A stretch of 64,000 nucleotides of DNA from a virus (IMGVR_UViG_3300047369_000529:15083-79082), one strand, 5' to 3'. Numbered from the stretch's first letter, positions 4,875 through 34,802 are shown. Numbers and translations: made by a program. Notes: generated by a model not told the origin, from the letters alone.

Positions 4875-4933
4875 TAATTATTAAGATATAGTACTAATAC
4901 AGATATATAAACCATAAATAATAAAAAGAAGTA

Positions 4934-15740: not shown

Positions 15741-17249
15741 TTGATTTTAACTCTAACGGAAGACAATCAGTTTCTTAGAATAGACGAAGCTGAGGAATTA
15801 GAATTAGAGCAGATTAAAATATCTTTAACTAAAAGAATTGATAGTTGGAGATTTAATCCTCTAGTTAAAAAAGGAATATGGGACGGATATGTTTCATATA
15901 TTAAAGACGATAAGTGGATTCCTGCTGGTCTTTGGAGATATGTTATGCTCATATGTAAGGAGTATAAGTTTGACCTAAAACTCAATGGAATTCAAAGACT
16001 TTTTGATAGAAACATAAATGCAGAATCCTTTGAAGAATGGGCTTTAGAATTTTTTAAGGGTAGTAAATTTACGCCAAGAGACTATCAGGTAGAAACATCA
16101 TTTAACATTCTTAAATTTAGAAGGTGCTTAGCTGAATTAGCGACTTCAGCCGGAAAAACACTTATTAGTTTTTTAACAGTCGCATACATGTTAGAAAAAG
16201 AAAAAGCAGAAAAGATATTATTTATAGTTCCTAATGTTTCTTTAGTCGTACAGGCTCACGAAGATTTTCATGAATACAATAATAAGAATAGAATAAAACT
16301 AAAAATACAACAGATATACGCAGGTCAAAAAATAAAGTCAGATCGAAATGTAGTAATAGGTACATATCAATCTCTAGTTAAAAAATCCAAAGAATACTTT
16401 CAACAATTCGATGCAGTTATTGTAGATGAAACACACAAAGCAAAGTCCAATTCTATTAAGACGATATTACAAAAATGTACTAACGCAAAATATAAGTATG
16501 GTTTATCAGGTACAATTCCTAAAGATGGATCTTTGGACAAGTTAACGTTAATGAGTCAGACAGGTCCAGTAATCAGCGAAGTAAAAGCAAACTTTTTACA
16601 AAGAGAAGGACATATTGCAAAATGCAAAGTAAAGGTTATTGAAATGGATTATGCTCCTGAAGCAAGCAAAAAGGCATTCGAAGAATTAGCATTTAACAAG
16701 TATGATAGAAAAGATGTTTTTCAATTAGAACAAAACTATATAATTAATTCTTTTGGTAGATTAAACTTTATATGTAGCGTTATAGGAAGAGTTCCTAAGA
16801 ATTCATTGGTGTTATTTCATAGAATTGAACACGGTAAAAAAATATACGAACATCTAAGGCAAAACACTGACAAAAGAGTCTATTATGTAGACGGTGGAAC
16901 AGATAAAGATATTAGAGAAGAATATAAAAAGAAAATGGAAGCAGGTGACGAGGTAGTTATCGTCGCGAGTTATGGTACTTTCTCAACGGGTATATCAATT
17001 AAGAAAATACATAACATTTTCTTTACAGAATCTTTTAAGTCCGAGGTAATCATCAGACAGTCTATAGGTAGAGGTCTAAGACAGCATGAATCAAAAGAGG
17101 CAGTATTAATAGTTGATTTTGTAGATGACATTAGAACTGACGAATGGGACAATTATCTATATAAACATAGCAAGGCTAGACAGAAAATATATAAACAAGA
17201 GAAATTTGAGTATAGTATTAAGAAAGTCAAATTTGAAGGAGATATATAG
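15741..17249 (+). CDS. uvsW: SF2 helicase UvsW-like
   Basis: WDG, PRDYQ, ATSAGKT, VDETH, GLSGT, STGISI, QSIGRGLR. Confidence 0.92.
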   Translation: MILTLTEDNQFLRIDEAEELELEQIKISLTKRIDSWRFNPLVKKGIWDGYVSYIKDDKWIPAGLWRYVMLICKEYKFDLKLNGIQRLFDRNINAESFEEWALEFFKGSKFTPRDYQVETSFNILKFRRCLAELATSAGKTLISFLTVAYMLEKEKAEKILFIVPNVSLVVQAHEDFHEYNNKNRIKLKIQQIYAGQKIKSDRNVVIGTYQSLVKKSKEYFQQFDAVIVDETHKAKSNSIKTILQKCTNAKYKYGLSGTIPKDGSLDKLTLMSQTGPVISEVKANFLQREGHIAKCKVKVIEMDYAPEASKKAFEELAFNKYDRKDVFQLEQNYIINSFGRLNFICSVIGRVPKNSLVLFHRIEHGKKIYEHLRQNTDKRVYYVDGGTDKDIREEYKKKMEAGDEVVIVASYGTFSTGISIKKIHNIFFTESFKSEVIIRQSIGRGLRQHESKEAVLIVDFVDDIRTDEWDNYLYKHSKARQKIYKQEKFEYSIKKVKFEGDI

Positions 17250-17281
17250 AATAACGAAACAAAATTAAATTTTATAATAAA

Positions 17282-18859
17282 ATGGCAGAAATCAATAAAA
17301 TTTCTTCTTTTAAGTCTTTTACTGAGATCAGAAAACAAGAGAACGCTAATAAACTTAGAGAAGAAAATAATTTAAAAAGACAAGAGGCTGTTGGTAAAAT
17401 AGCCACTATATTAGATGAACTAGGACTAACTTCTTTTGAAGGTTTAGAAGAAGATCAAAAAGAAACAATCATCTCAAAAATATTTGGAGACGTTTCTGAA
17501 GAAGAACTTGCAGAAATTGAGGTTGAAGTTGAAAAAGAAGTTGAAGAAACGGAAGAGTCGGAAGAGCAAGTTTCAGAAGCCTTAGATATTAGATATAAGA
17601 GAGATGCTAAAAAGGTAGTAACTCAATTTAAAAAGATTTTTGCAGAGTTAGGAAGTCTAACAGCAGATAAAGTAACTTATTTAGGAGCTATTAAATATTT
17701 ATATAATGAAGCTCTAACTGATGCTAACTTTCATTCAGCGAGATCAGCTACTGAAAAAATTATTAAAGGTAGATTAAACAGTATTTCAGTTTCTCCTGAA
17801 TCTTTAGGAAAACATGCAATTATCGTTGGTGCAAAAAACATTATGAAAATTCTAGATGAATATTATTCTAGAATTTCAAATGCAGCGGGATGGTCAGGTC
17901 CTGGAATTGCTGAAGGAACAGCAATGTATTTAGAATCTATTGGTGAAGGTTCAACCGCTGAAAAATTATTAGTAGGTTTTAATGCAGCTAATGAGAGCGT
18001 TGAATACCAATTATCAGAAGAAGAAATATCATTAAAGGAGTCTAACCTTATTTTTGAAGCAACCGTTACAATGGACGCTATGAATCCTAAAGATAAAGAT
18101 TTCTTAAAATTCTTAAAGAAGAATAGCGTTAAAATTATCGATATGGTAAAATCAGGACCAACTGGTCACCCTGAAATTACTATGCAGGGTAAAAGAGAGG
18201 ATTTAGAAGCGGTATTAGCAGATGGAGAATTAGGATGGGATGATGCAGGTTTAGCAGACTATATTGAAGAGTCAGCTACAATCGTTCTTAATGAAGGAAC
18301 TAGAGGCCAATTTGGTAAAATAGACAGAAAGGGAAATATTACTTCAGTTTATACTCACTACGATTCTTACCCAGAAAATATGTTACCTATTATTAAATCA
18401 ACATTTAAAAGCGGTAAGAATGTAGATTTCGTTCTTAAGAATGGAGACAATTCAGGTCTAGATAAAGACATTAAGAAAATTAATTTCTACGGCGGAGATT
18501 CTAATTTAATGACAGGTAATATTAAGAGCATTAATGATTATATTAAAAACGCAAATTACGAAGCTGGTGCAGAATTCGTTTATTTATGGGATGAAAAATC
18601 TAAAAAATGGATGATGGCAGACATTTATGCAGAAACTGGATTAGTTCCAGCATTTGAATCTGTAGTTAACGAATCAGAAGCTGAAAATATCTTACAAGAT
18701 CTTTTAGACGAAAGAGGAGGAGACATGGGAGAATTACATGGCATGGAAATGGAAGATGCTTTAGATACAGTTGAATCTTATGGACATAAAGGTTCTAAAG
18801 CAAAAAAGATTGCACAAGAATTAGTTTCACTATGTAACGAATCCGTGGCTACTAACTAA
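17282..18859 (+). CDS. Putative internal-head polyprotein 1 (leader plus about 4 modules)
   Basis: KISSFKSFTE leader; modules bounded by VSE^A, IFE^A, LNE^G, ESVVNE^S; late promoter at 17241. Confidence 0.6.
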   Translation: MAEINKISSFKSFTEIRKQENANKLREENNLKRQEAVGKIATILDELGLTSFEGLEEDQKETIISKIFGDVSEEELAEIEVEVEKEVEETEESEEQVSEALDIRYKRDAKKVVTQFKKIFAELGSLTADKVTYLGAIKYLYNEALTDANFHSARSATEKIIKGRLNSISVSPESLGKHAIIVGAKNIMKILDEYYSRISNAAGWSGPGIAEGTAMYLESIGEGSTAEKLLVGFNAANESVEYQLSEEEISLKESNLIFEATVTMDAMNPKDKDFLKFLKKNSVKIIDMVKSGPTGHPEITMQGKREDLEAVLADGELGWDDAGLADYIEESATIVLNEGTRGQFGKIDRKGNITSVYTHYDSYPENMLPIIKSTFKSGKNVDFVLKNGDNSGLDKDIKKINFYGGDSNLMTGNIKSINDYIKNANYEAGAEFVYLWDEKSKKWMMADIYAETGLVPAFESVVNESEAENILQDLLDERGGDMGELHGMEMEDALDTVESYGHKGSKAKKIAQELVSLCNESVATN

Positions 18860-18871
18860 ACATACAATAAC

Positions 18872-19075
18872 ATGAAAAAATTAATTGAATTTATTAAAAA
18901 GGCATTTAATGCAGTTAAGACCTGGGTTGTTGCAAACGGAGTTGAAGGTGTTTTAGGCCTTATCGCTGGACTTGCCCTATGGGCGTTTGGCTATAAAATC
19001 TATGCTGGATTTGCATTTGGCGTATTTGCAACTCGTAACTGGGACCTATTTAAATCCTGGGTAAAAGGATTATAA
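18872..19075 (+). CDS. Small membrane protein
   Basis: 67 aa with hydrophobic Gly-rich segments. Confidence 0.6.
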   Translation: MKKLIEFIKKAFNAVKTWVVANGVEGVLGLIAGLALWAFGYKIYAGFAFGVFATRNWDLFKSWVKGL

Positions 19076-19139
19076 ATTAAAAAAAAAATTGGCTTATAAT
19101 TTTTCTAGGTCGATTTTTTTAATTATATTAGTAATATAA

Positions 19140-20513
19140 ATGAAACTAGATAACAACTTCGTAGACTTTATTCAGCATCATGCAGATATGCAAGGTATGA
19201 CTAGAGAAGAATATGTTGCTCATTTCTTATCAGAAAGATACGATAATAAAATTTTAACATTTGACGAATTTATCGTTGAGAAGTTTTCTAATCTACAAGA
19301 AGCTTTAATCTTAGAAGGCGGTGCTGCAGGGCATATGTCACATCCATTTGATGAGAAAGATTTAACGTTTGCAGATTTTAAAACAATAGTAAAATCAGGT
19401 CTTCAAGGAGAATTAAACTTTGAAGAAGTTGCAACAGAAAAAACAGACGGCCAAAATTTATTTGCCACCGTAAGAAACGGAGTTACTCTATTTTCTAGAA
19501 ATAAAGGCCAATTAATTAGCCCAGTCGATTTAGACGGGATTATAAAAATGTTTGAAGAGCATGAAGTTCCTTTAGTAAGAGAAACATATGTGTTTGCTGC
19601 TAAAGACCTAAATGAAGCTCTTCCAAAGATGAAGGATCAGTCTATATTTAATGAAGGTAAGAACTTTATTAATATGGAATTAATTTACTCTAAGAATCCT
19701 AATGTTATTTATTATGAAAGAGATGTTTTACAATTCCACGATATTAAGGAAACTGATGGAAATGGAAATATTATTGGAGAGCAAAAAATAGCAGGAGAGC
19801 TTGTTTCCGCATTAAAAGAAGTTGATGCTGATGTTCAAAAAACATTTACAATAATTCCCCCTCAAATATTAAAATTAGGAAAAGATATTGATTTTGAAAA
19901 AAATCATGCTAAATTTATAAAACAAATTGAAGCACTAAGAGATCGTTATAATCTAACAGATAGTGACGAGGTTTCTAGGTATCATGAAATGTGGTGGAGA
20001 GAAACTATCGATGAAAATTTCCCTAATCTACAACAAGACTATAAAGAAGGTTTATTATTAAGATGGGCCTATGGAGATAAGAAAACTCTTAACATGAGAA
20101 GTCTTGCAAAGGAAATAGGAAAAGATGAAGCAGCGGCGGTTAAGAAATTCGACAAAGAAGATGTTAAAAAGAAATATAAAGAAAACATTAGACCTTTCGA
20201 AGATTTATTTTTAGAATTAGGGTCTATAATTCTTAAAAATGCGTCCAATTTTGTAGCAGCTAATCCTGACAAAGAAATGCAAAGATTGCATAATCAGATT
20301 AGAACAGAGGCTGATAAAATTAAGAAAGGCGGAAGCGTTGCTCAGATCGAAAAGGTAATGAAAGAATTAGAGAGATTAGATAGAATTGGTGGAGTAGAAT
20401 CTATTATACCAACCGAAGGGATAGTTTTCGTATATAAAGGAAAAACTATGAAATTAACGGGTACATTTGCCGCTATTAATCAATTAATGGGCGTTATAAA
20501 GTACGGAAGATAA
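19140..20513 (+). CDS. ATP-dependent ligase-fold covalent nucleotidyltransferase (RNA-ligase-like)
   Basis: Motif I EKTDGQN, SRN, MELIY, LQFH, motif IV EGIVF, motif V KLTG; leader ILTFDEFIVE...LILE^GGAAGHM. Confidence 0.6.
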   Translation: MKLDNNFVDFIQHHADMQGMTREEYVAHFLSERYDNKILTFDEFIVEKFSNLQEALILEGGAAGHMSHPFDEKDLTFADFKTIVKSGLQGELNFEEVATEKTDGQNLFATVRNGVTLFSRNKGQLISPVDLDGIIKMFEEHEVPLVRETYVFAAKDLNEALPKMKDQSIFNEGKNFINMELIYSKNPNVIYYERDVLQFHDIKETDGNGNIIGEQKIAGELVSALKEVDADVQKTFTIIPPQILKLGKDIDFEKNHAKFIKQIEALRDRYNLTDSDEVSRYHEMWWRETIDENFPNLQQDYKEGLLLRWAYGDKKTLNMRSLAKEIGKDEAAAVKKFDKEDVKKKYKENIRPFEDLFLELGSIILKNASNFVAANPDKEMQRLHNQIRTEADKIKKGGSVAQIEKVMKELERLDRIGGVESIIPTEGIVFVYKGKTMKLTGTFAAINQLMGVIKYGR

Positions 20514-20523
20514 ATAATAAGAT

Positions 20524-22398
20524 ATGGCACTTAAAAAAATAAGACAAGTATTTCAAGAAACTAACATTAATGCATTTCAGGATCTTCTGAAAAATAGAAT
20601 TTTAGTTACTGAAAAAATACAAGGTTCATCTTTTCACGTAAGAAGAAACGTAGAAAGGTTTGAATATTTTAAATCTGGAGATATTCGTATGAATATGATA
20701 GATAGAACTATCGTAGGACTATACGAAACAGGGGTTAAACATATTCAAAGTTTAGATCCTTCAATTAAAGAAGAAATGCCAACGGATTGGAAATTTGGAT
20801 TTGAATATCTTCCTGAATTAGAAATATCACAATACAAATATACTAAACTTCCTAAGAATAATTTAATATTAACACATATACAAACGTTATCTGAGTCAGG
20901 TAAAGTTAAAAAAACTATTTATGACCCTTCTGTTTTAAACAAATGGGCAAAAAAATTAGAAGTTCAAGGACCTAGCATAGTATTTGATGGAACTTTAAAT
21001 CAAAATCAAAAAACAGAATTAATAAATCTTTTATCTATGTCAGATAAAGAATTTGTAGAGTCGTTTGACTATGATAGATCTACGGATTTTAAAACTTCAT
21101 TTACACAGAAAATAATAAAGATTTTTAATCCAAATCAAACTTCACCAATATTGAATGAAGATTTTGAGGTTGAGATTGATGGTCTAATAATTTCATTTAT
21201 AGACGGAAAGAAAGTAAAATCTTTTAAATTAGAAGACTTTACTAGAAACAACGAGAGCAACTCTAAGGAATCTAGTCACATGTATCAGATTACTATAGCT
21301 GATCTAATCGAATATCTTTCTTCATTTGACATGAACTCTGTTCAACTAAACGAAGAAACAGCAGATCTTAGGTACATTGAATTAATGTCCGTTATATTTA
21401 ATAAATATGTAAATGAAAATTCTACTAAATTTATAGGAGTTAACTTTGAATCAGCCGACTTTGCAAGCCATAGCGTATTTAAACTAAATAGTAAATACAT
21501 TAAAAACGAAACCACACTTTCTTTAGTGGAAAACGAAATACTTTCAGAATTATTTAAAATAACGCTCGGATCTTTTAGAAAAAAGAGAAATAAAGAAAGC
21601 GATATTCTAAATAAAGAAATGATAGAGCATTTAAATAATATAGTAGAAGAAATAGATAAAAAGATATTCGTTGAAAACACCGACGAAAATTCAATATATG
21701 ACTTTAACAATTTTATATTACATAACAAAGTAAAGACTAGTGTTAATTTAAATGAAGCGCTTAAGGTAGATCATCCTGAACAAGGAGGAGAATTAGTAAA
21801 TATGTTTGTTGGTAGATTCCAACCATTTACACTTGGACATGCTAAAGTATTAGAAACTATACACAAAGAAAATGGATATCCTGTTGTAGTATTATTAGTC
21901 AAAGCAAAGAATAAGAAAAAAGAAGACGCTTTTAAAAGACCTTATGATGAAAAAACGCAACTTAAGATGTTTAAGGCGGTTCAAAAACAATATCCATTCC
22001 TAAAAGAAATTTTTGTAATTCCAACAGGAGGTATTGATACTATGTTCAATGCAATGAGACCTAAATATGAACCTGTATTATGGGGAACAGGAAGTGATAG
22101 AATGAAAACTTACGGATTCCAAGTAAATAAAGATTCTTATAGAGAAGATCTTGGAGTTAGAAGCGACTTTAGATTATTTGAAATTCCAAGAACAGATGAT
22201 AATATTTCAGCGACTCAGGTTAGAAACGCAATGCTAGACGGAGATGAAGGATTATTTAAGTCAACAACACCCAAAGCATTACATAAAATGTATGGCGAAC
22301 TTAAGAAAAAATTAGAAGATTCAGTAGGTACTTCAGAATCAAATGAAGTTGCTGAATCATTATTAACATTTAAACAATTTTTAGAAAACAATGGATAG
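20524..22398 (+). CDS. Fusion of variant ligase-fold domain and HIGH-superfamily nucleotidyltransferase (cytidylyltransferase/NMNAT-like)
   Basis: N-terminal EKIQGSSF...DGLII...FKL; linker VNLNE^A; GRFQPFTLGH, GSDR, ISATQVR; C-terminal LLTFKQFLE. Confidence 0.7.
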   Translation: MALKKIRQVFQETNINAFQDLLKNRILVTEKIQGSSFHVRRNVERFEYFKSGDIRMNMIDRTIVGLYETGVKHIQSLDPSIKEEMPTDWKFGFEYLPELEISQYKYTKLPKNNLILTHIQTLSESGKVKKTIYDPSVLNKWAKKLEVQGPSIVFDGTLNQNQKTELINLLSMSDKEFVESFDYDRSTDFKTSFTQKIIKIFNPNQTSPILNEDFEVEIDGLIISFIDGKKVKSFKLEDFTRNNESNSKESSHMYQITIADLIEYLSSFDMNSVQLNEETADLRYIELMSVIFNKYVNENSTKFIGVNFESADFASHSVFKLNSKYIKNETTLSLVENEILSELFKITLGSFRKKRNKESDILNKEMIEHLNNIVEEIDKKIFVENTDENSIYDFNNFILHNKVKTSVNLNEALKVDHPEQGGELVNMFVGRFQPFTLGHAKVLETIHKENGYPVVVLLVKAKNKKKEDAFKRPYDEKTQLKMFKAVQKQYPFLKEIFVIPTGGIDTMFNAMRPKYEPVLWGTGSDRMKTYGFQVNKDSYREDLGVRSDFRLFEIPRTDDNISATQVRNAMLDGDEGLFKSTTPKALHKMYGELKKKLEDSVGTSESNEVAESLLTFKQFLENNG

Positions 22399-23470
22399 GT
22401 ACGATTTTGAAAGAGCACTACATAGTGCTGCAAAAACCAATGCTGAAAATGAAGCGTTAATTATAGAATCCTATATTGGAGTTGCAACGACCGGAAGTAA
22501 ATCTGCCCAACAGAATTTATTTAATTCAATTAATAGAACATTTAAAAAGAATAAGTGTCCATGGCAAGGTGTTAAGTTTACTTCAACACAGGATGTTAAA
22601 CAACAACCTGATGGTAGGTTATGGCTTTCTAAAATGGATGACGATACATTCGGAGTAGTTTTTCAATATTTAATGTTAAATAAAAGCGAAGCAAACGAAT
22701 TGTTTAATATTGGAAGAGACGATAATGGAATTGGTGCTGGAGAAATAATGCTAGCGTATATTGTAGAAAATATAAAAATAGGTGGAGGTGCGGCCGATAC
22801 TGACTTAGAATTATATAATGAAAGGTGGTCACCAATTAAACCACCCCTTGGTAAATGTGAGTTAAAAGAAGCTCAAATGTCAAAGGGCATGTTACAAAAT
22901 TGGAGAACAGGTGCAAAACACCAGGGAATTAATAGTACTTATGTACCGAAGTTAACGGCATTATATGACGCAGTAAAATATAATATTGAAGAAATCAACC
23001 CGGACGGAGATGGTAAAGATATGGCTGCCGGTGGAGGTTGGATAAATGAATGGGGAACTGTAGGTGGAAAAAGATTTAAGCATATTCAAAATTTAACTAA
23101 GACAGATATTCAGGCCCTTTCTTCTAGTGAAAGAGATTTTAAAATAGGTCCTGGAGATAAAGATAACGGCGCATTAGTAATTAAATTTAATGACGTAGAA
23201 TTAGGAAAGCTAAGTGACTCTAAAACTGCAGAAAAAATTAAAAGTATAATAGAGACTGAGCCTTCCGTTAGAACATTTACTGAAATACAAGACGATGTAA
23301 TTTCAGCAGTAGGAGATATACCTACTCCATTCCTTTTTATAGAGTCTAAAGATCATGAAATAGTAGCTTTTCACTATTACAAGAAATTACCTGGAAAAAC
23401 TAGCGAATTACAAATATATTCTATTACACAAGGTAAATTTAAATATAAAATAAAGCCTAACCGAGTTTAA
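22391..23470 (+). CDS. Putative PD-(D/E)xK nuclease-fold protein
   Basis: GAGEIML...GGGAADTDL...CELKEA pattern; leader ending LIIE^S. Confidence 0.4.
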   Translation: MDRYDFERALHSAAKTNAENEALIIESYIGVATTGSKSAQQNLFNSINRTFKKNKCPWQGVKFTSTQDVKQQPDGRLWLSKMDDDTFGVVFQYLMLNKSEANELFNIGRDDNGIGAGEIMLAYIVENIKIGGGAADTDLELYNERWSPIKPPLGKCELKEAQMSKGMLQNWRTGAKHQGINSTYVPKLTALYDAVKYNIEEINPDGDGKDMAAGGGWINEWGTVGGKRFKHIQNLTKTDIQALSSSERDFKIGPGDKDNGALVIKFNDVELGKLSDSKTAEKIKSIIETEPSVRTFTEIQDDVISAVGDIPTPFLFIESKDHEIVAFHYYKKLPGKTSELQIYSITQGKFKYKIKPNRV

Positions 23471-23490
23471 ATAAACAAATACAAATAAAA

Positions 23491-26118
23491 ATGAGCACTA
23501 AAAAAACATTTGAAAGCTTTGTAAATTCAATGAATGAAAACGTTGATTTATATAAAGTATATAAAAGAGTTTCTGGAAAATACTCTTTAAGAAAACCTTC
23601 TTATTGGGGAGATCTATTTAATCAAAGAGCTTCTATCCCGTTAAAAGAATTAAGTAAATATTCTTCTGAATTAGATTCATTAGAAGTCTATACTACTAAA
23701 GAATTAGGATGTCATCCAGATTATCCTATGCAATCAAATTTTAAGGTTCAAGTTCCTCAAGTATTCGTACTATATTGTAATACTGAAAGGGGCGAATTAG
23801 GAGAGTATTATGGAATGTCAATTCTTGTAAATACTGAAGGTGCAACATATCCAAGATATGCATGTGGTATGCCAGATTTCGAACCAGAACTTCATAACTT
23901 TGCAAATGGAATTCCTGAAAGCTATTTAAATATTGTAACAACAGGTGCTCAAATGTTACATGAAAAAATGATAGCTGAAGGTCAATTCTCATGGATGACA
24001 CAAGATACTGGAGATCAGATTGGTTCAGAACCTCAAAATAAAATAGACGTTTACATGTACGACAACCAGGGTAATTCTTGGAAAGAAAGAGACTATGAAG
24101 GCTATGGAGAATTTGGCGGTATGGATTACTATGACTTAGTTGCAACTATGAACGGATATACTGAAGAAGACGTTAAAACAATGAAAGGTTCATTTAAAGA
24201 ATTAAGACAACTTGGTATCGATTTAGCGTTTGGTAAAATAAAAACTAAAGATAAAAAGCGCAAAACTCTTTTTCCAGCTTTAGTCACAGATCCTAGGTAT
24301 AATTGGAAAAGACATGATTTTACTCAAGAAGCAGAATCAGATCCAAACCAATCATGGTATCAAGAGCCTGAGTATGACGATTATGAAGATGAATATGATG
24401 ATTTCTACAATGAAAAAGAAATCAAGGGTAAAGCTGCCGGCAACTCTATAAAGATGGCACCAGCAGGTAGAACTATTGAAATCAATGGTATCACTTACAC
24501 ATGCCTTGGTAAAGGTAAGTGGGAAGGACCTGATGGCGAAAAAGTAAATTGGATTGAAGTTTCTGCTATGGCATCAGCATTAGGAAACAAGAAAGTTGTA
24601 TATGAATATGATGGCTATGAGTCAGTAGTTACTGAAGCTAAAGGAGATTTAAAAGTAGGAGATAAGGGTATAGATTATAATGATAATGTTGTAAAAATAA
24701 TTGCTATTGGTAATTTTAAGAAAATTGCTAAAATGTTTAAGAAAGAAATGAAAGCAGACGCAGCTGATTGGGGCTACGAAGAAGGAGCTGGAGATTTCTA
24801 TCTTGCTAAAAACATAGAAGCGACTGAAGGTAATGTTGGAGATTTAGCAATTTATCCAGTAAAATACGACATGGCTAACTACTGGGGTTTAGATAAACTA
24901 GATGAATCATCAGTTACTGAAAACTATGAAGTTATTTATAGCGACGGCGTAAGTGCTATGAAAAAGTTTAGAAGCGAGAAACAAGCACTAGACTTTATGA
25001 AGAAAACTATCTCTTCTAATAAAAAACTAAGAGATATTGCAGTTTACAAACCAGGAATGTATTCAACTACTCAAACTGAACTAGTTGTTAAATTCTGGGG
25101 AGATGGTTCTTATTTAGATAACGTTTCTAAAAAAGATAAAGATTTAGCTTCTAAAAAACTAGAAGAATCTACCTTAAATGAAGCTCGTTCTATTAACAAG
25201 ATTTCAAAGGAGTTTGGAGAAACGGTTAATAAAATGAAAGATATAGTTAAAGTATATGTTGCTGCTGAAGAAGGAAGTGATGAAAAATCAAAATTAAGAC
25301 AACAATTAATTGATTTAACAGCAAAGAAAAAGTCTTTAACTAAAGAATTAGACGACGCCGTAGCTGGAAAAAACAAAGATGTAAAATTAGTTATAACAGA
25401 AGGTGTAATGTCAAATATTCATTTGATGGCATCCGATTCTAAAAACTGGGATGATTTCTTAAAAAAGTTTAAGAAAGATTATAAGAAAGTATTTCAAAAT
25501 ACACCTGACTTTATGGATTGGTTATATGGCATGTATAAGGATATGGCTCCTTTAAAAGCAGGCGAAAAAGTAGAAGAAAAATATAACAAGAAAAAGTTAT
25601 TAAAAGCAATTAAGAATAAAGACGACATGTTTATTCAGTTAGGAGATGGTACTGAACTAATAGTTTATAACCCGGATTCTAATAATGACGACAATGCAGA
25701 AATGTGGCACGATGATGTGGTATTTGCGATCGATCAAGACGGAGAAGAACATGAGGTTAAATACTCAGATATTGCAGGTATTGGTGAATCTGTAGTTTCT
25801 GAATCTAAAATTCAAATAAAAAGAAAGTATACAGACAAGCATCCAGCAAAAACAGCTGGAAGATCTGCAAGGGTTAGAAACGCAATGATAGAAGCTCTTT
25901 CGGATGGAATATTAACAGAAGAAGAATTCAATAATATTTTAAAAGAAAAATCTATTGACAGTAAAAGATGGATGAGAAGAAATTCTAGATTTTTTATGGT
26001 AAGTGAAGAAGGAATCAAGCTTTCTAAATATGGAAAAAGAATTTTTAAAGAAATTACGAATAAGCAAGTAGTTAACTTAACTCTAGAATCTTTTATAAAG
26101 GATATATACAATAAATAA
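23491..26118 (+). CDS. Putative internal-head polyprotein 2 (about 9 modules)
   Basis: MSTKKTFESFVNSMNE leader; linkers IAE^G, FYNE^K, ESVVTE^A, ESSVTE^N, ESTLNE^A, ITE^G, VEE^K, ESVVSE^S; C-terminal LTLESFI. Confidence 0.65.
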   Translation: MSTKKTFESFVNSMNENVDLYKVYKRVSGKYSLRKPSYWGDLFNQRASIPLKELSKYSSELDSLEVYTTKELGCHPDYPMQSNFKVQVPQVFVLYCNTERGELGEYYGMSILVNTEGATYPRYACGMPDFEPELHNFANGIPESYLNIVTTGAQMLHEKMIAEGQFSWMTQDTGDQIGSEPQNKIDVYMYDNQGNSWKERDYEGYGEFGGMDYYDLVATMNGYTEEDVKTMKGSFKELRQLGIDLAFGKIKTKDKKRKTLFPALVTDPRYNWKRHDFTQEAESDPNQSWYQEPEYDDYEDEYDDFYNEKEIKGKAAGNSIKMAPAGRTIEINGITYTCLGKGKWEGPDGEKVNWIEVSAMASALGNKKVVYEYDGYESVVTEAKGDLKVGDKGIDYNDNVVKIIAIGNFKKIAKMFKKEMKADAADWGYEEGAGDFYLAKNIEATEGNVGDLAIYPVKYDMANYWGLDKLDESSVTENYEVIYSDGVSAMKKFRSEKQALDFMKKTISSNKKLRDIAVYKPGMYSTTQTELVVKFWGDGSYLDNVSKKDKDLASKKLEESTLNEARSINKISKEFGETVNKMKDIVKVYVAAEEGSDEKSKLRQQLIDLTAKKKSLTKELDDAVAGKNKDVKLVITEGVMSNIHLMASDSKNWDDFLKKFKKDYKKVFQNTPDFMDWLYGMYKDMAPLKAGEKVEEKYNKKKLLKAIKNKDDMFIQLGDGTELIVYNPDSNNDDNAEMWHDDVVFAIDQDGEEHEVKYSDIAGIGESVVSESKIQIKRKYTDKHPAKTAGRSARVRNAMIEALSDGILTEEEFNNILKEKSIDSKRWMRRNSRFFMVSEEGIKLSKYGKRIFKEITNKQVVNLTLESFIKDIYNK

Positions 26119-26130
26119 AAACTATAGAAA

Positions 26131-27960
26131 ATGAAACTATATACTAACTTCGATAATTTTATCAATGAAGCAAAGGTTATGAAGCAGAAAGATACTGCTA
26201 AAATAGCACAAAAATTAGCATCGGCTCTTTCAAAGGCAGATGGCAAAGAATTTACAATTTCTAAAGATTCATTAGATGCTGGAGGATGGGATCTAGATAT
26301 GGATGGAGAAGAATTCGCAGGTGGAACTTATTTTATTGGAGATGCTGGAGAAATAGTAAACGCAGCAACAAGTAATGACGTATATGGTCACATGGACGAC
26401 AGTGAAGCTGAATTAGTTAAAAAGATTAAAAAGGGTAAATTTGCAAAATACAGAGCAACTGAATCAGTAGTTAACGAAGCATCTCTTTCGGGTGTAGAAT
26501 TTGGAAACGATGACGACATTCACCCAACTAAATTTAAACCTTTAACTACATCTTTAAAGAAGAATAAAGTTAAAATGGAAGTTGAAAAAGAAGAAGGTTA
26601 CCATGGCTACCCAGAAGTTAAATTAACGGGTAAAAGAAAGGACATCGAAAAGGTTTTAGCTGATGTATGGGGACCAGACTCAATCTCTGACTATGAAGAT
26701 TATTTTGAATCCAAAGTTAATGAAGCTAGATTTAAAAAAGGACAATACATTAAAGCCACTGCCGATAGCGATGATTTTGATGGAGATGTTTACGATGTAA
26801 CTAACGACGTAGATGGTAGTACGATTTACAAAGATTCATCATTCGAAATTTATGGAATTAATAGAAATGAAGTTATTCTTTGGAGTGACGAGGATGAAGT
26901 AGAATACTCAATAGATCCGGATGATCTTAAACATTTTGTTAAAGAATCATTAGATATTGAACTTAATGAAGCTCTTAAGTCTTCTAAACTAAGAAACTTA
27001 ATAGACATAAGACAGGGTGGTAAGCAACTAATGCAGGGTATATATGGTCTTGCTAAAGTAGCATTAGATAAAGTAACCGACGACATGGTTATCACTAATT
27101 CAAATCCAGTTGAAGTTTATAAGAAAGCAAAAACATACGGAAATGTATTAGTATTTTGGATTTCTAGAAACGAAAAGGAAAATCCTTACACACCTAGAAA
27201 TAGTTATGGTGGAAAAGATATTATTCCAGGAAATACCTTATTAGCAGTCTCAAATGGTAAAAACGAAATGTTTGACAATCATGCTGCATATACTAGAGAG
27301 TATGTGGATGGAAAACAAAGAAGTAAAACTACAAGATCTTTAAAGAATAGAGGAAGATACCCTGGTTCTAAAGACACTGTTGGGGTAGATAAATCTCATA
27401 GTACATGGAGTGGAACAGGCTTAGGAAATATTAAAAGAATCGCAGAGGTTTCAGACGAATGTTACATTATTAATTTAGACGCTGTTAGAGATAGACTTTC
27501 TACAAGTAATAAAGTATCGCAAAGATTTTCTCAAAAAGCCGATGCTACCGCTTTTGATAATCCAAAAGATATTAAACAAGCAAACATCACTAAATATCAA
27601 TCAATTTTAGCACAAAGAGCAGATAATCCAGATAAAATAGACAAACAAGTTAAAGAAATTATTGAAGATGCTCATCAATTCTTAATGGCCGGTTTAGCTA
27701 AAAAAGAAATGGGAGACTATAATGAATTATCAATAGGAAAAGATCCTAAAGGAAGAGATATTAAACCTAGAGATTTAACCAATTATATTTCAAATATATT
27801 GTCAGATTATCAAGGATATGTTTCGGCATACGTTAATGCAAAAACTGAAGAAGAAAAATATGGAACTTCAAGCGATTGGTATAAAAGAGATGCTAAACGT
27901 AAAGCTCTAGAGCTTAAGCAGCGAATGGCTAAATGGGATAACAAGAACATAGTTTGGTAA
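26131..27960 (+). CDS. Putative internal-head polyprotein 3 (4 modules)
   Basis: MKLYTNFDNFINE^A leader; ESVVNE^A, ESKVNE^A, ELNE^A linkers; late promoter at 26101. Confidence 0.65.
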   Translation: MKLYTNFDNFINEAKVMKQKDTAKIAQKLASALSKADGKEFTISKDSLDAGGWDLDMDGEEFAGGTYFIGDAGEIVNAATSNDVYGHMDDSEAELVKKIKKGKFAKYRATESVVNEASLSGVEFGNDDDIHPTKFKPLTTSLKKNKVKMEVEKEEGYHGYPEVKLTGKRKDIEKVLADVWGPDSISDYEDYFESKVNEARFKKGQYIKATADSDDFDGDVYDVTNDVDGSTIYKDSSFEIYGINRNEVILWSDEDEVEYSIDPDDLKHFVKESLDIELNEALKSSKLRNLIDIRQGGKQLMQGIYGLAKVALDKVTDDMVITNSNPVEVYKKAKTYGNVLVFWISRNEKENPYTPRNSYGGKDIIPGNTLLAVSNGKNEMFDNHAAYTREYVDGKQRSKTTRSLKNRGRYPGSKDTVGVDKSHSTWSGTGLGNIKRIAEVSDECYIINLDAVRDRLSTSNKVSQRFSQKADATAFDNPKDIKQANITKYQSILAQRADNPDKIDKQVKEIIEDAHQFLMAGLAKKEMGDYNELSIGKDPKGRDIKPRDLTNYISNILSDYQGYVSAYVNAKTEEEKYGTSSDWYKRDAKRKALELKQRMAKWDNKNIVW

Positions 27961-27977
27961 AATAAGACTTAAAAATT

Positions 27978-28700
27978 ATGAATAATAAAATAGAAGAAAA
28001 ATTTAAGTGGGAAACTACTGGCGACAAGGATGATAGAGAGTTCTTAACAGGTTTAGTTCAAAGAACTAAATTAATTTACGGAGATATTAAACCTGCTAAA
28101 TACGATCTTAACGACTTTGATAAAGACTTAGATAAATTATTAAAGAAATTTGTAAAAGATTCTGATTCTTTTTTTAAGGCAAAGGACGATAGAGACTATG
28201 GAGCTAGTAATAAAATACATGCAGATTGGATGAAAGCTGCTCAAAAAGCATTTAAACATGTTACTACAAATACTGCATGGAGAGGTCAATTAAATACATT
28301 CACTAGAAATTTATCAACTATTTGGCAAGTTCACATGGAAGCAGAGGCTGGAAGAACAGGAAACAGAGGCTATAAAGTTCATAAGAGACAAGCCTTTCAA
28401 AAACAGTTTGAACAAGTAAAATTGTATGAACAGTTTATTAACGAAAGATTTAACGCTAGAAAAGTAAAGAAAGAACTAGAAGGTTTTGGCTTTAAGAACG
28501 TTGATGCTAGTGGAAACGAAATTTCAGTTGAAACGGGCTCTTATGAAAATCCATTTGGTTCAGAACAGAGTTACACTTTCTTTTGGAATGGTGAAACAGT
28601 CTGGTGTGAATCAGAAGAAGCTGAAACAGAATGGATGGGAGAAGTAACTACTGCAGAACAATTTGCAGAAACTATGGAAACAGCAGAAGGCTGGTCATAA
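27978..28700 (+). CDS. Two-module putative internal protein
   Basis: Internal QVKLYEQFINE, matching the N-terminus of the next ORF. Confidence 0.55.
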   Translation: MNNKIEEKFKWETTGDKDDREFLTGLVQRTKLIYGDIKPAKYDLNDFDKDLDKLLKKFVKDSDSFFKAKDDRDYGASNKIHADWMKAAQKAFKHVTTNTAWRGQLNTFTRNLSTIWQVHMEAEAGRTGNRGYKVHKRQAFQKQFEQVKLYEQFINERFNARKVKKELEGFGFKNVDASGNEISVETGSYENPFGSEQSYTFFWNGETVWCESEEAETEWMGEVTTAEQFAETMETAEGWS

Positions 28701-28716
28701 TTAAAAAACAAGAACT

Positions 28717-29034
28717 ATGAAACAAGTAAAACTATATGAGCAATTTATAAATGAATCAGCAATTGATACTTTAGCTACTGAAATTGATGATGCTAAAGTT
28801 TATGATGCTGTTTCGGATGGAGGTTCTGTTGACGCAAGATCTACTAAAAAAACATGGGACGATGGTGTTCCAGTTTTAAAGTATATTGCTAGAGCTCCAA
28901 AAAAATCTGTTAAATTACCTAAGAAATTTAAAGTAGTAGACGACACTAAATATGGATGGTGGTATTTACAAGTATCAGGAGTATGGTATGGAATCGAACA
29001 AGATGATTATGGAACTCCACCATTTGAATATTAA
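28717..29034 (+). CDS. Putative internal head protein (single module)
   Basis: MKQVKLYEQFINE^S resembles the T4 capsid-targeting sequence MKTYQEFIAE. Confidence 0.65.
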   Translation: MKQVKLYEQFINESAIDTLATEIDDAKVYDAVSDGGSVDARSTKKTWDDGVPVLKYIARAPKKSVKLPKKFKVVDDTKYGWWYLQVSGVWYGIEQDDYGTPPFEY

Positions 29035-29037
29035 GAT

Positions 29038-31044
29038 ATGGAATTAAACGAAAACGAAAACTTATCACTTGGCGATATGGCCGGAATGGGAGAAGTCTCT
29101 TTACCATCTGAAACATCAGTTGGATCAGGGGATATTCCAGCCGGAAAAGGAGATGCCGAAGAAGAGTATAAGAAGAAGAGAAATAAAAAGAAACAACGCG
29201 AAATGAAAAACATTATATCATTTGAATCTTTCGGATCACTTGATGAAGGTAAAACAATATCTTCTTCTAAAATATCTATGATGGGTGCAAGAGTTCTTAA
29301 TAAAATTAGCATCGGTACCATATTTGATACAGAAGATGGAAACTATGAAATTACGGATTATGGCCGACAGGCAAATGCATTTAAAGAATTTGAAGCAGAA
29401 CATAATGGTAAAAAAGTAAAGGTAAAATTAACTGCAATGTATGGTGTTAAGTTAGAAGTAACTGACGATGTACGCAGCGCTAGATTTAATAAAGAAGTAA
29501 AGCTAAATTCTATTATTTTAGAATCGGTTAATGAAGGTAAGTTTGACGGTATTGCAGATTTAGTAAAATCTTTACATTTCGAAATGGATCCTAAAACCGC
29601 AGAAGAAAAGAAAATCGAACTAGGTAAAAGACAAGGTGAAGTTTCAAGAAGAAAGCAAATTGAAGGTGGTGAATATTCACTAAGAAGATTTAGAAAAGAG
29701 ATTAAATACGATGAGACCGGAGAAGATCTTGGTGTATTTAAACCCGGTAGCTATATGGCTGCTACTTCTATATTAGGCGATGGTCCACATAAGAAAGCCG
29801 TTAAGAAAGTAAGATGGAATAGAAAGAAATACGATCAATGGATTGAAGATATGGCAGCTAACGATGGTTGGAAGAATGCATTCGATATGGCACAAAATGC
29901 TAAACACGAACCAGGTCTATTACAATGGGCTAAGAAAGAATTTAGAGGTGAAGACGTAATGCAAAGAATTCAATGGGATATTGAAGGTTACGCAGAATCA
30001 GTAGTTACTGAATCTATTAGTAAATCTACTAAAATACATTGTATCGCAACACCAGCTCCTAAGTCAATGCTTAAGGATGAGTTAGAAGAATTATTCGGAG
30101 ATGATTATAGAAATATAGTTACAGAAGTTCAAGACGATGAAGGTTATGAATCAGTGTTAGTATTTAATCTTACTAAAAGAGACATTAAATTAATAGAAGA
30201 TAATATTGGAGATGTATTAATCTGGGAATATTCAATTAAACCAGGTAAATTAATTAATGAATCAGTAGTTAACGAAGCTGAAAAGTATATCACTGATAAA
30301 TTTAAAGTAGGTGATAAAATTAAAACTAATTTTGGTGAATGGGAAGTAATTGAAACTGATTATGCACCTAAAAAGAGTTTTATAGCACCTTTTATATTTA
30401 AAGGAAAGAATATAGAAAGAGTAAACATACCTAATCCACCTAAAACTAACAAGAATGCGGTAGGTTACAAAGTAACAGACGGTGCTAAATATCCAACTAT
30501 TGGTTTCTTATATCAATATAAAGATATTACTAAACTTGCAACAGTTGGCGTTGATGAATCAATAGTTACTGAAGCTGAAAGTGTAAAGGTAGGAGAATAT
30601 ATTAAAACTCAATACGGTTATTTCTATAAAAGAGTCGACGGTAAAGTTGGAGGACAAGAAGCTTTCGTTGAAATAAAGAAAGGAAAAGAAGGAAAGAGAA
30701 AAACAAGTATTCATGATACAGTTAGCTTTGAAATAGTTGATAAAGATGCTGCATTCGAATCATTGGTTACCGAAAAGAAACACGATAGAGAAGATACTAT
30801 AAAATTCATAAAGAAATACATGAGATTCGTAAAAACCACTGAAGAATTTAATGGTTCTCAGGGTGGTATATGGGTTTCAGGTGAAGATGGAGATGAATAT
30901 AAAGGAGTAACAATCTATGATTACTATACGTCTGGTAAATCATATGAATTAGGTGTAAATATAAAGTGGGAAAAAGAGTTAAATGAAAGAGGATGGTACA
31001 GCGAATGGTATGATGCAGGAACTGTAATGATCTGGGAAATATAA
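29038..31044 (+). CDS. Putative internal-head polyprotein 4 (leader plus about 6 modules)
   Basis: Internal MKNIISFESFGSLDE^G; linkers ESVNE^G, ESVVTE^S, ESVVNE^A, ESIVTE^A, ESLVTE^K. Confidence 0.65.
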   Translation: MELNENENLSLGDMAGMGEVSLPSETSVGSGDIPAGKGDAEEEYKKKRNKKKQREMKNIISFESFGSLDEGKTISSSKISMMGARVLNKISIGTIFDTEDGNYEITDYGRQANAFKEFEAEHNGKKVKVKLTAMYGVKLEVTDDVRSARFNKEVKLNSIILESVNEGKFDGIADLVKSLHFEMDPKTAEEKKIELGKRQGEVSRRKQIEGGEYSLRRFRKEIKYDETGEDLGVFKPGSYMAATSILGDGPHKKAVKKVRWNRKKYDQWIEDMAANDGWKNAFDMAQNAKHEPGLLQWAKKEFRGEDVMQRIQWDIEGYAESVVTESISKSTKIHCIATPAPKSMLKDELEELFGDDYRNIVTEVQDDEGYESVLVFNLTKRDIKLIEDNIGDVLIWEYSIKPGKLINESVVNEAEKYITDKFKVGDKIKTNFGEWEVIETDYAPKKSFIAPFIFKGKNIERVNIPNPPKTNKNAVGYKVTDGAKYPTIGFLYQYKDITKLATVGVDESIVTEAESVKVGEYIKTQYGYFYKRVDGKVGGQEAFVEIKKGKEGKRKTSIHDTVSFEIVDKDAAFESLVTEKKHDREDTIKFIKKYMRFVKTTEEFNGSQGGIWVSGEDGDEYKGVTIYDYYTSGKSYELGVNIKWEKELNERGWYSEWYDAGTVMIWEI

Positions 31045-31073
31045 CTCTACTCATTAGTTTTAAACAATTTTAG

Positions 31074-31103
31074 AATGCTTTGTATAACTACAAAGCATTT
31101 TTT
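31074..31103 (+). terminator. Hairpin/terminator closing the polyprotein block, overlapping the -10 box of the mgsA promoter
   Basis: AATGCTTTGTA-TAAC-TACAAAGCATT followed by a T run. Confidence 0.7.
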
Positions 31104-31114
31104 ATTTATATAGT

Positions 31115-31507
31115 ATGGACAAGATGAGATTCGCATTAATTGCGCATGATAACAAAAAAGCAGACATGGTAGCTTTTGTTTCTAAAAGACTTGATTTTTT
31201 TAATAATGAAGCTGTTGATATTATTACCACAGGAACTACGGGTAAGAAGGTAAAGCACGCCGGAATCAATAGAGTTACCACTGTTCAAAGTGGGCCTTTA
31301 GGAGGAGATGCCGAAATAGCTGCCATGGTGGTGAGAGGTGAGGTTACTGGCGTGATATTCATGAGAGATCCCCTGGATAAACATCCACATGATGTAGATA
31401 TTTCAATGTTAATGAGGTTATGTGACGTCCACGATGTCCCCTTGGCTACTAATTATAAAACGGCTAGCATCTTAATTAAATGGTATCGTTCTAAATATAA
31501 AATATAA
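31115..31507 (+). CDS. mgsA: Methylglyoxal synthase
   Basis: ALIAHDNKK, TTGTTG, SGPLGGD, DPL..HPHDVD, RLCDV..VPLATN. Confidence 0.93.
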   Translation: MDKMRFALIAHDNKKADMVAFVSKRLDFFNNEAVDIITTGTTGKKVKHAGINRVTTVQSGPLGGDAEIAAMVVRGEVTGVIFMRDPLDKHPHDVDISMLMRLCDVHDVPLATNYKTASILIKWYRSKYKI

Positions 31508-31539: not shown

Positions 31540-31785
31540 ATGGATAACATTATCTTCAGGCCCGGAAATTATAAAACATGGTCAATTAAAGCGATAGAGA
31601 AAATCGAAGCTGTCATTGATTCGTGTGTCACCTTCGATCATCTAGATTCTGCTAAAAAATTAGTTGATCAGTTTTCTATTATTACAGCACTTGAGCAAGA
31701 TGATGAAAAATCTATTGAAATAATTATTCACCAATTGTGGCTTAGAATTAAGTTACAAGAAAATAAAATAAATGGATCAAAATAA
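31540..31785 (+). CDS. Hypothetical protein
   Basis: 81 aa ORF with its own AAAC-N16-GTATAA promoter. Confidence 0.6.
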   Translation: MDNIIFRPGNYKTWSIKAIEKIEAVIDSCVTFDHLDSAKKLVDQFSIITALEQDDEKSIEIIIHQLWLRIKLQENKINGSK

Positions 31786-32266
31786 AGGTAAAATAGGATT
31801 TACAGCAGGGAACTTCGATCTTCTCCATCCTGGGTATATTTACACATTTGAAACAGCAAAAGAACACTGTGATTACTTTATGGTATTTCTACAAAGAGAT
31901 CCATCTGAAACTAGATATACTAAATATAAACCAGTAATTCCTCTTTATGAAAGATATAAAACTTTAATGGCGATTAAATACGTAGACGAGGTGGTTACGT
32001 ATCAAACAGAAGAAGACCTTTTAAACTTAATCGAGTTTTATAAACCAGACGTAAGAATTTTAGGAGACGATTATATTGGTAAAAGATTCACTGGAGATCA
32101 TATGCCAATCGAGGTTATTTATACAACTAGGTCTCATAATTGGTCAACAACCAGAATTAAAGATTTAATAACTAAGCAAACCATCTTACAGAATCCTTCT
32201 ATTATAGAAGAAAACGTAAAGTCATTAACAGCTGACGAAGCGGCTAAAATAATTAATAACAAATGA
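31772..32266 (+). CDS. TagD-like cytidylyltransferase
   Basis: GNFDLLHPGY (HxGH variant), ER...YVDEV, GDDY, RSHNWSTTRIK. Confidence 0.8.
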   Translation: MDQNKGKIGFTAGNFDLLHPGYIYTFETAKEHCDYFMVFLQRDPSETRYTKYKPVIPLYERYKTLMAIKYVDEVVTYQTEEDLLNLIEFYKPDVRILGDDYIGKRFTGDHMPIEVIYTTRSHNWSTTRIKDLITKQTILQNPSIIEENVKSLTADEAAKIINNK

Positions 32267-33192: not shown

Positions 33193-33404
33193 ATGCAAAA
33201 TTAATCGAAATGCTAAGAGCAGACGCTCTAGCACAAAAAGCAAAAGCACTTTTAACTTTAGACCTTTTAGGTAATAAAGGATCGGGTATTGGAGACCACT
33301 CTACTAAAGACTTTTATGAAAATGCAGATGAGGCGTTAACTATGCTAGTCGATGCAGATGATAAATTAGAAGCTTTAGATAAGTATTTTCCACAGGACTT
33401 ATAA
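33189..33404 (+). CDS. Hypothetical phage protein (GIGDH motif)
   Basis: 71 aa helical hairpin with GIGDHS turn. Confidence 0.6.
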   Translation: MNAKLIEMLRADALAQKAKALLTLDLLGNKGSGIGDHSTKDFYENADEALTMLVDADDKLEALDKYFPQDL

Positions 33405-33437
33405 AAATGCACTTTTTTTGAAAAAAAACAGCCCGGG

Positions 33438-33471
33438 ATTTTTTTATCTCGGGTTTTTTTGTTATATTTAT
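33438..33471 (+). promoter_or_regulatory. Hairpin-embedded putative early/host-type promoter (second copy at 19099-19132)
   Basis: Both sites align ungapped as ATTTTT.TA..TCG..TTTTTT..TTATATT and overlap inverted repeats; TATATTT resembles the Bacteroidota -7 box TAnnTTTG. Confidence 0.45.
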
Positions 33472-33493
33472 AGAGTAATAATTAATTAAAGAT

Positions 33494-33871: not shown

Positions 33872-33873
33872 GA

Positions 33874-34341: not shown

Positions 34342-34342
34342 A

Positions 34343-34510: not shown

Positions 34511-34534
34511 AGTATAATAACTAAACACATTCTT

Positions 34535-34801: not shown

Positions 34802-34802
34802 T

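Follow-up and report, generated by a model that had tools for sequence, protein, structure and literature searches.

We analysed a 64,000-nucleotide (nt) stretch of viral DNA (the window), corresponding to bases 15083–79082 of the 79-kb IMG/VR virus record IMGVR_UViG_3300047369_000529, and focused on a short recurrent linker, E-S-[V/I/L]-V-[N/T]-E, that separates the modules of several long open reading frames (ORFs). We consider it fairly probable that this linker has two roles: as a peptide it would be a site for the phage head protease, and as DNA it would be an in-frame joint at which modules are exchanged. The ORFs in question divide into about 28 pieces, mostly of 60–160 amino acids (aa), and the linker itself is carried by those spanning 17282–18859, 23491–26118, 26131–27960 and 29038–31044.

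Codon choice in the linkers

Six-frame translation of the window identified 13 occurrences of the peptide E-S-[VILSK]-V-[NTS]-E, all on the + strand and all within 18659–30760, and only weak look-alikes in the remainder of the 64 kb. The six-codon linkers (E-S-[VIL]-V-[NT]-E) number ten, all on the + strand between 18656 and 30774 (Table 1). At the DNA level these follow the 18-nt consensus GAA TCW GTA GTT AMY GAA, and the copies at 26461 and 30259 share a 20-nt exact repeat (GAATCAGTAGTTAACGAAGC), as had been stated in an original prediction made for this DNA. The same prediction held that about ten linker copies share their codon choice. This was borne out by simulations in which codons were redrawn from the window's own usage while the peptides were held fixed: the same-codon fraction of the linkers was 0.815 against an expectation of 0.543 ± 0.059, and 0/20,000 simulations reached the observed value (p<5e-5).

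Conservation in excess of codon usage is found in the window, in the linkers of relatives and in orthologous alignments. Among 51 distinct linkers of the same form, collected from the window and 60 related loci, the P3 valine is encoded by GTT in 51/51, the P4 valine by GTA, rarely by GTG and never by GTT, and the serine never by AGY. In the background of the same DNA, GTT makes up 45% of Val codons and AGY 25% of Ser codons. Outside the linkers, VV dipeptides are encoded by GTA-GTT in 23%, Val preceding N/T is GTT in 43% and V-[NT]-E uses GTT in 64/122. Synonymous conservation above codon usage extends across 51–76 distinct linkers of relatives, and positions with the same residue in orthologous alignments have identical codons in 84% within linkers versus 74% elsewhere (p=0.0045). 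The idea that the linker codons serve to create stops (TAG/TAA/TGA) in the other frames was dropped, because it leaves GTT in the VVTE form unexplained.

A further near-duplicate at 28411 and 28721 had also been taken as conserved DNA. The pair does exist: QVKLYEQFINE is encoded at about 28411–28445 and again at 28721–28755, with 29/35 bases identical. The six base differences are all synonymous and 5/11 codons differ, which is what codon bias predicts. This leader-type pair is conserved as a peptide and not as DNA.

Breakpoints and transferred modules at linkers

Relatives of the window proteins, 719 of which were returned by the database search, match in discrete linker-bounded pieces. Breakpoints were read from DNA-level comparisons; a protein-level BLAST map of match ends was noisy. 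Compared with the 98%-identical contigs L007 and L009, the region contains exactly three insertions/deletions (indels), all in frame (483, 285 and 561 nt) and each with both ends in linkers, where the original prediction had placed them. Indel 1, of 483 nt, has its ends in ESVVNE and ESLDIELNE and its crossover in a shared GAATCA. At indel 2, a 310-nt module between FESF..DE and ESVNE is replaced by 25 nt. Indel 3, of 561 nt, has its ends in ESVVTE and ESIVTE, and the crossover lies in GTTACTGAA. Contigs from public seawater runs contain the joints 26460>26944 (6-nt overlap) and 30001>30563 (11-nt overlap), and the first of these coexists with the full form (contig 26437–26973) in runs X11 and X13. 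Loose contig ends were also located on linkers, at 25167, 25399, 26706, 30012, 30269, 30278 and 30776.

Modules change partners at the same positions. The module ..ITKLATVGVD, for example, is followed by five different downstream partners, each joined directly after the Glu, and several other modules show the same behaviour. The module at 18055–18273 is placed differently in L011. The ORF at 17282–18859 ends in a decayed linker, ESVATN-stop, in which both peptide and codons are eroded and after which the downstream module is lost; the L014 orthologue of its C-terminal module has an intact ESVVNE followed by another module. We did not use as evidence five low-support joints with short sides of 22–30 bases (24010>24304, 24643>25776, 26432>26553, 26740>30254 and 29237>29527), which may stem from other phages sharing a linker or module, nor the joints 27183>27409 and 27480>27618 (72-base sides), which are not at linkers.

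All of the sequences compared are metagenomic and the repeats are exact up to 20 nt, which would allow the mosaics to be assembly chimeras produced by assemblers jumping at repeated 18–20-mers. We find this barely credible, as the same architectures recur in independent samples and assemblies, with the window's 668-aa protein present on 9 contigs. At least four IMG/VR contigs have the L007 form, as do Logan contigs of other runs, in which the shorter side of the joint is up to 216 bases long. Moreover, 20 nt is below the usual final assembly k, and every variant is in frame.

Single modules were identified at 90–96% DNA identity in phages that barely align otherwise in this region. These are 29245–29526 in L053, 30277–30555 in L050, L051, L052, L054 and L056, and 25576–25808 in L018. 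L053 is part of the complete 276-kb phage G001, whose capsid and portal proteins share 29% and 26% identity, respectively, with those of the window. Modules have been transferred laterally between these phages, and base-by-base alignment placed both the beginning and the end of the identity tracts inside the 18-nt linkers. The linker cores at the transferred modules keep the synonymous spelling of their own genome. Among linkers encoding the same peptide, 65% of within-genome pairs against 25% of between-genome pairs have identical bases throughout (permutation p=0.0005), and ESVNE, for example, is spelled GTA AAC in the G001 lineage and GTT AAT in others. Background codon usage differs too little between genomes to account for these dialects, and the within-genome identity is the signature of repeated exchange or conversion among linkers.

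Fixed synonymous positions would also be expected if a homing-type site-specific nuclease or nickase recognised the DNA word (GTAGTTAAC / GTAGTTACT) and started the exchanges, the conservation then being that of a recognition site. T4-type phages carry many homing nucleases, and T4 segD was seen. However, no nuclease gene was found next to the locus, and the word varies between genomes, which is unexpected for a fixed recognition site, making this explanation very improbable.

Alternatively, the linker could matter only as a peptide, with recombination occurring at random, the survivors being those that keep frame and site, and the synonymous conservation arising from another nucleic-acid constraint such as translation kinetics or RNA processing. 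The peptide is indeed extremely constrained (P6 Glu in 147/147, P5 Ser in 147/152 and P1 Glu in 147/148 contexts), the leader-type pair at 28413/28721 is conserved only at this level, and one of the indels has no clear overlap. We nevertheless regard this account as unlikely, although it deserves to be kept in view. The junctions fall within shared linker bases, with overlaps of 6 and 11 nt, and the identity tracts of transferred modules end inside the 18-mer. Genome dialects and excess within-genome identity are predicted by exchange or conversion and not by a universal RNA constraint. In addition, GTA and GTT are equally common codons, and an Rfam search of 17000–31200 returned no family.

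The linker as a putative head-protease site

Cleavage by gp21, the prohead protease of T4, takes place after L/I-x-E; of the residues in the T4 leader, 4 and 7 send the protein to the prohead core, and 8 and 10 direct processing (PMC9026906). The T4 internal proteins (Ip) IpII and IpIII start with MKTYQEFIAE/A (a slash marks a cut site or module boundary throughout), and T4 gp23 is cut at ..FLTE/A. The start of several ORFs, in the window as well as among relatives, reads M-K-x-x-[F/Y]-x-x-F-[I/V]-N-E. The leaders MKQVKLYEQFINE/S at 28717 and MKLYTNFDNFINE/A at 26131 conform, by sequence pattern, to the T4-type leader rule (10–19 residues; targeting residues 4/7, aliphatic 8, Glu 10), and leaders of relatives include MDIKKTFNDFVNE/G and MKHYTSFEDFINE/A. 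In the internal linkers P1 is never Asp, and P3 is Val, Ile or Leu. In P0012, P0021 and P0025 the module GKFDGIADL.. is preceded by an N-terminal leader; the window and L045 have an internal ESVNE or ESVVTE in front of it. Similarly, the window module at 28717–29034 is the last, C-terminal unit of P0046, a protein of 1139 aa with 11 sites. Since the same modules occur behind a leader or a linker, the two are interchangeable.

The short site [VIL][NT]E[ASG] is enriched both in head proteins (protease-scaffold, capsid propeptide and neighbouring head ORFs), with 7 in 1858 aa (odds ratio 7.7, p=4.5e-4), and in the polyproteins, with 15 in 3022 aa (odds ratio 10, p=2e-7); the reference was all other genes, with 7 in 14,188 aa. 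The protease encoded in the window matches PF03420 at 40–43 bits (cut-off 27), and this family was also found in four relatives searched. In the complete phage G001, linker-bearing ORFs are interspersed with the genes for portal, protease, scaffold and capsid, at the place that the prohead-core genes 67 and 68 occupy in T4; these ORFs include homologues of two window modules. The window protease forms a single 679-aa protein with its acidic tail, whereas L053 encodes a separate 197-aa protease (6192–6785) and has the acidic scaffold-like protein in its own gene.

Based on these sequence patterns, the linker is most likely a cleavage and capsid-targeting site for a T4-type prohead protease (gp21, Peptidase_S77). 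This likely primary role had been left out of the original prediction. The ORFs would then be polyproteins of capsid-internal cargo that is cut by the head protease, with the modules probably injected along with the DNA.

A different possibility is that the linkers do no more than connect the domains of multidomain cytoplasmic (early) proteins, are neither cut nor packaged, and resemble the T4 leader by coincidence. The window genes do adjoin helicase, primase and ligase-like genes, and the structure model was uninformative. We consider this decidedly unlikely. The hydrophobic, invariant E-S-V-V-[NT]-E is unlike a flexible connector, and the specificity of gp21 is matched by its invariant P1 Glu and its aliphatic P3. 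N-terminal leaders and internal linkers are equivalent, and the leaders resemble MKTYQEFIAE. The short site is enriched in the protease, the capsid protein and neighbouring head proteins, and the head-gene cluster of G001 contains two of these modules.

Not all related polyproteins start with a short leader. About 70 of them, besides P0013, P0065 and P0099, begin instead with a DUF3008 domain (PF11450) and an acidic spacer, and the window ORF at 29038 retains only the acidic spacer of such a start. DUF3008 might be an alternative capsid-targeting head.

In the mechanism that we propose for the two roles, E-S-[V/I/L]-V-[N/T]-E would be the internal form of the leader M-K-x-x-[F/Y]-x-x-F-[I/V]-N-E, and the protease would cut after the Glu (aliphatic P3, Glu P1). 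The products of the ORFs at 17282–18859 and 23491–31044 would enter the prohead, be separated by cleavage and, as is the case for T4 internal proteins, probably be injected together with the DNA. Each module would be self-contained, with a standard site in front. The near-uniform 18 bases would let a break or stalled replication in one linker resolve on another linker, in a reaction run by the phage's UvsX, gp46/47 and gp32-type functions or by template switching. The outcome would be in-frame deletions, duplications and insertions and, in mixed infections, exchange with phages using the same word. Selection would need only to keep products with a cut site between modules, and exchange at the joint would guarantee that site. 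Such exchange could involve a single genome, the members of one population, and T4-like jumbo phages that are only very distantly related. With regard to the in-frame shuffling by phage recombination machinery that had originally been suggested, the joints do lie at linkers; we infer the enzymes and pathway from the presence of UvsX-, gp46/47- and gp32-like genes.

Several points weigh against the two-role reading. The view of the ORFs as cargo polyproteins rests on sequence inference, and in the window their genes have replication genes as neighbours, with the head cluster about 26 kb further downstream. With 15 occurrences against 14.4 expected, the T4 late-promoter word TATAAATA shows no enrichment; it does not precede the polyprotein genes, and no T4-type late promoter was found. 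No module has a recognisable function: Pfam, PHROG, Foldseek searches against the PDB and BFVD, and a protein atlas gave no credible match, and Pfam and PHROGs applied to nine ORFs returned only a cytidylyltransferase-like domain (20524–22398) and two families of unknown function. The AlphaFold model of the ORF at 29038–31044, built from a 40-row mosaic alignment, was poor (mean predicted local distance difference test, pLDDT, of 53); pLDDT dips at only some linkers, and a helix spans one of them. At the DNA level, indel 2 is a replacement without clear overlap, and the junction overlaps elsewhere are short (6–11 nt), which fits short-homology events better than classical long-homology recombination. 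Selection retaining only in-frame, site-preserving products could also gather the surviving breakpoints at linkers. Uniformity is not absolute either, as two linkers of L050 (7207 and 11369; ESFVNE and ESKVNE) use other codons, AGT for Ser and GTG/GTA for Val. These linkers may have evolved independently or be old, and they indicate that the peptide does not force the usual DNA word. Finally, the DNA uniformity may be selected for recombination or may simply be a by-product renewed at each exchange.

A wider proposal is possible, and we make it tentatively: the linker may be part of a cassette "grammar" shared by marine T4-like jumbo phages. The 18-nt word would serve as protease site and universal in-frame joint, and injected-effector modules of about 90 aa would be traded within populations and across lineages whose core proteins are <30% identical. 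Uniformity would be actively maintained by conversion or by selection for exchangeability, giving a recombinase-free counterpart of the integron at the level of protein modules. Internal proteins, being injected, are a phage's first answer to host defences. If the two-role reading is right, abundant seawater phages carry dozens of injected units as polyproteins, renewed by whole-module swaps at a standard joint, and the rapid in-frame diversification of anti-defence cargo would have a concrete mechanism that can be tested. Packaged effectors of uncultured phages could then be sought by a simple rule, namely that their leader or linker ends in V-[N/T]-E, and the arrangement would offer a natural design by which a single gene supplies several proteins to a capsid. 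It would further be a clear case in which genome dynamics, and not translation, constrain synonymous sites.

Genomic setting and comparison with known systems

Table 1. Polyprotein ORFs, linkers, exchanged segments and head or recombination genes, in window coordinates.
Feature	Position	Strand	Remark
Polyprotein ORF, 525 aa	17282–18859	+	Module boundaries ..EQVSE/A, ..IVLNE/G, ..ESVVNE/S
Six-codon linker ESVVNE	18656–18673	+	GAA TCT GTA GTT AAC GAA
Polyprotein ORF, 875 aa	23491–26118	+	Leader-like N-terminus MSTKKTFESFVNSMNE, then about 7 modules
Six-codon linker ESVVTE	24619–24636	+	Matches of relatives begin here
Six-codon linker ESSVTE	24904–24921	+	Upstream module joined to three different downstream modules in relatives
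Degenerate linker EESTLNE	25162–25182	+	Contig variants break at 25167
Degenerate linker KLVITE	25384–25401	+	Contig loose end at 25399
Degenerate linker GEKVEE	25561–25578	+	L018 has canonical ESVVTE before the same downstream module
Six-codon linker ESVVSE	25786–25803	+	
Polyprotein ORF, 609 aa	26131–27960	+	Leader MKLYTNFDNFINE/A, then 4 modules
Six-codon linker ESVVNE, one 20-nt exact copy	26461–26478	+	Left end of indel 1
Two-module segment, 483 nt	26461–26943	+	Absent from L007-type genomes; junction in shared GAATCA
Six-codon linker ESKVNE	26707–26724	+	
Long linker ESLDIELNE	26944–26970	+	Right end of indel 1
Two-module ORF, 240 aa	27978–28700	+	Internal leader-type linker QVKLYEQFINE/R (28413–28445)
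Stand-alone module, 105 aa	28717–29034	+	N-terminal leader MKQVKLYEQFINE/S (28717–28755)
Polyprotein ORF, 668 aa	29038–31044	+	7 modules; relatives are mosaics covering only 23–53%
Leader-like linker FESFGSLDE	29221–29247	+	Left boundary of inserted module
Single module and 3' linker	29245–29535	+	Absent from L007; about 96% DNA identity to G001 (L053) head-cluster module
Five-codon linker ESVNE	29521–29535	+	GAA TCG GTT AAT GAA
Six-codon linker ESVVTE	29995–30012	+	Left end of indel 3
Two-module segment, 561 nt	30002–30562	+	Absent from L007-type genomes; 11-nt overlap at joint
Six-codon linker ESVVNE, second 20-nt exact copy	30259–30276	+	Second site KLINE just before
Module	30277–30555	+	About 90% DNA identity in L050, L051, L052, L054, L056; tract boundaries inside flanking linkers
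Six-codon linker ESIVTE	30556–30573	+	Right end of indel 3
Six-codon linker ESLVTE	30757–30774	+	
gp32-like single-stranded DNA-binding protein gene	13063–14010		
UvsX-like recombinase	43726–44835	+	Phage's own recombination machinery
gp47/gp46-like nuclease genes	46974–49759		
Prohead protease (Peptidase_S77, T4 gp21 family) fused to long acidic scaffold-like tail	57552–59591	+	KRVNE/S after protease domain, VETVNE/A near C-terminus
Major capsid protein (Gp23 family)	59744–61114	+	..ATGINE/AEK in N-terminal propeptide region
Head-cluster ORF	61237–62613	+	Starts MKTFEQWYKAFTE/S, T4-like leader

The phage is a marine T4-like jumbo phage. The CheckV completeness of the record is 28%, which implies a jumbo genome. 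The window has a G+C content of 29–37%, with nearly all genes on the + strand, and encodes a T4-like gene set that includes a gp32-type single-stranded DNA-binding protein, primase, helicase, an alpha-glucosyltransferase-like gene and a T4-type portal. Within the phage collection, the capsid protein is closest to those of an uncultured 462-kb phage (51%) and of Lak phages (38%). Searches with the region against 50,697 phage records by megablast (DNA) and tblastn (protein) gave no match, and the phage lacks a close isolate. The stretch is present in many seawater metagenomes, and at least 14 seawater DNA runs carry most of it. Contigs from an RNA library (X15) cover parts of the stretch; such contigs cannot show transcription, and we make no claim about expression. 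No tRNA genes were found. The intergenic gaps in 23470–31044 measure 3–20 nt, and inspection of the intergenic regions revealed no convincing shared promoter.

Several neighbouring genes deserve mention. Within the polyprotein block, 19140–22398 contains two ORFs without a family match except for a PF01467 (NMNAT-like) C-terminal domain in 20524–22398; the pair shows 84–88% DNA conservation in relatives. The ORF at 19140 has a leader-like site, ..LTFDEFIVE/K, at aa 39–47, and the ORF at 20524 has ..RILVTE/K near its start and ..LTFKQFLENNG-stop at its end. The products could be packaged enzymes. The first polyprotein gene is followed by a 280-nt gap containing a small ORF (67 aa; 18872–19072) with a hydrophobic, membrane-like core. 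At 1542–8155 there are two tail-fibre-like ORFs of very large size (1110 and 1073 aa) with collagen-like N-terminal matches. The T4-type DNA polymerase is seemingly split between ORFs 36868–38265 and 42174–43370, with the PHROG 262 profile matched at positions 90–494 in one and 498–840 in the other, and with ribonucleotide reductase genes and another ORF in between. Upstream of the polymerase, 31772–36376 contains a sugar-nucleotide gene cluster (heptose-phosphate adenylyltransferase-like, nucleotide-sugar epimerase-like and T4 alpha-glucosyltransferase-like) that may be a DNA hypermodification island. Such an island would be in keeping with internal proteins that, like those of T4, are directed against modification-dependent restriction.

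Like the system described here, the T4 internal proteins (IpI, IpII, IpIII and Alt, each with a capsid targeting sequence processed by gp21) have a short leader whose aromatic residues are spaced three apart and which leads into an aliphatic-x-Glu cut site. In both cases a gp21-family protease is encoded, the cargo is small, unrelated and fast-turning-over, and the loci, which are hypervariable in T-even phages, differ between close relatives. However, T4 internal proteins are encoded by separate genes, with one leader per small gene, whereas here the site is repeated inside long ORFs with many modules per polyprotein, and cleavage is predicted. Most modules are inside ORFs of 240–875 aa, and only 28717–29034 has the T4 layout. 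Repoila 1994, in its abstract, reportedly ascribes shuffling in T-even phages to intergenic promoter-containing repeats and not to the leader coding sequence. The same attribution is given in PMC2839356. All three T4 internal proteins inhibit specific GmrSD-type restriction enzymes (PMC12373910).

The promoter-early stem-loop (PeSL) cassettes of T4-type genomes also feature short conserved DNA words that flank variable units and are proposed to steer recombination to "acceptable" places, and their authors likewise compare PeSLs with integrons (PMC2839356). PeSLs are intergenic regulatory elements, combining an early promoter with a stem-loop, that flank and move whole genes; the joints found here are inside ORFs, where an 18-nt in-frame coding word moves modules. 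Integrons themselves have a tyrosine-recombinase integrase with attI/attC sites; PF00589 had no match in the 79-kb record, which covers about 28% of the genome, whereas all control genomes matched, and we use "integron-like" as an analogy only.

The polyvalent proteins of phages and conjugative elements (Iyer et al, 2017; PMC5512222) are similarly multi-module and are thought to be delivered with DNA and released by proteolysis. They contain known conflict domains, usually with an embedded metallopeptidase, whereas here the head protease would release the units in trans, cutting at a repeated site of uniform sequence. Pfam/PHROG, fold and atlas searches of the modules yielded no conflict-related domains, and no peptidase family matched the polyprotein ORFs, the only peptidase found being the separate head protease.

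The ejection or inner-body proteins of phiKZ-like giant phages (SPN3US, 201phi2-1) are cut at several S/A-x-E sites by a diverged gp21 homologue. These phages share with the one described here a giant genome, many packaged proteins, Glu-specific prohead proteases and several cut sites per substrate. Their extra sites are, however, in long propeptides that are discarded, whereas the sites in the window separate strings of exchangeable cargo modules with a DNA-conserved joint. We found no description of such strings in the searchable literature, which is not proof of absence. What sets the present case apart is the combination of many cargo modules per ORF, their predicted in-trans release at a uniform site, and the use of that site's DNA-conserved coding sequence as a joint across very distant lineages.

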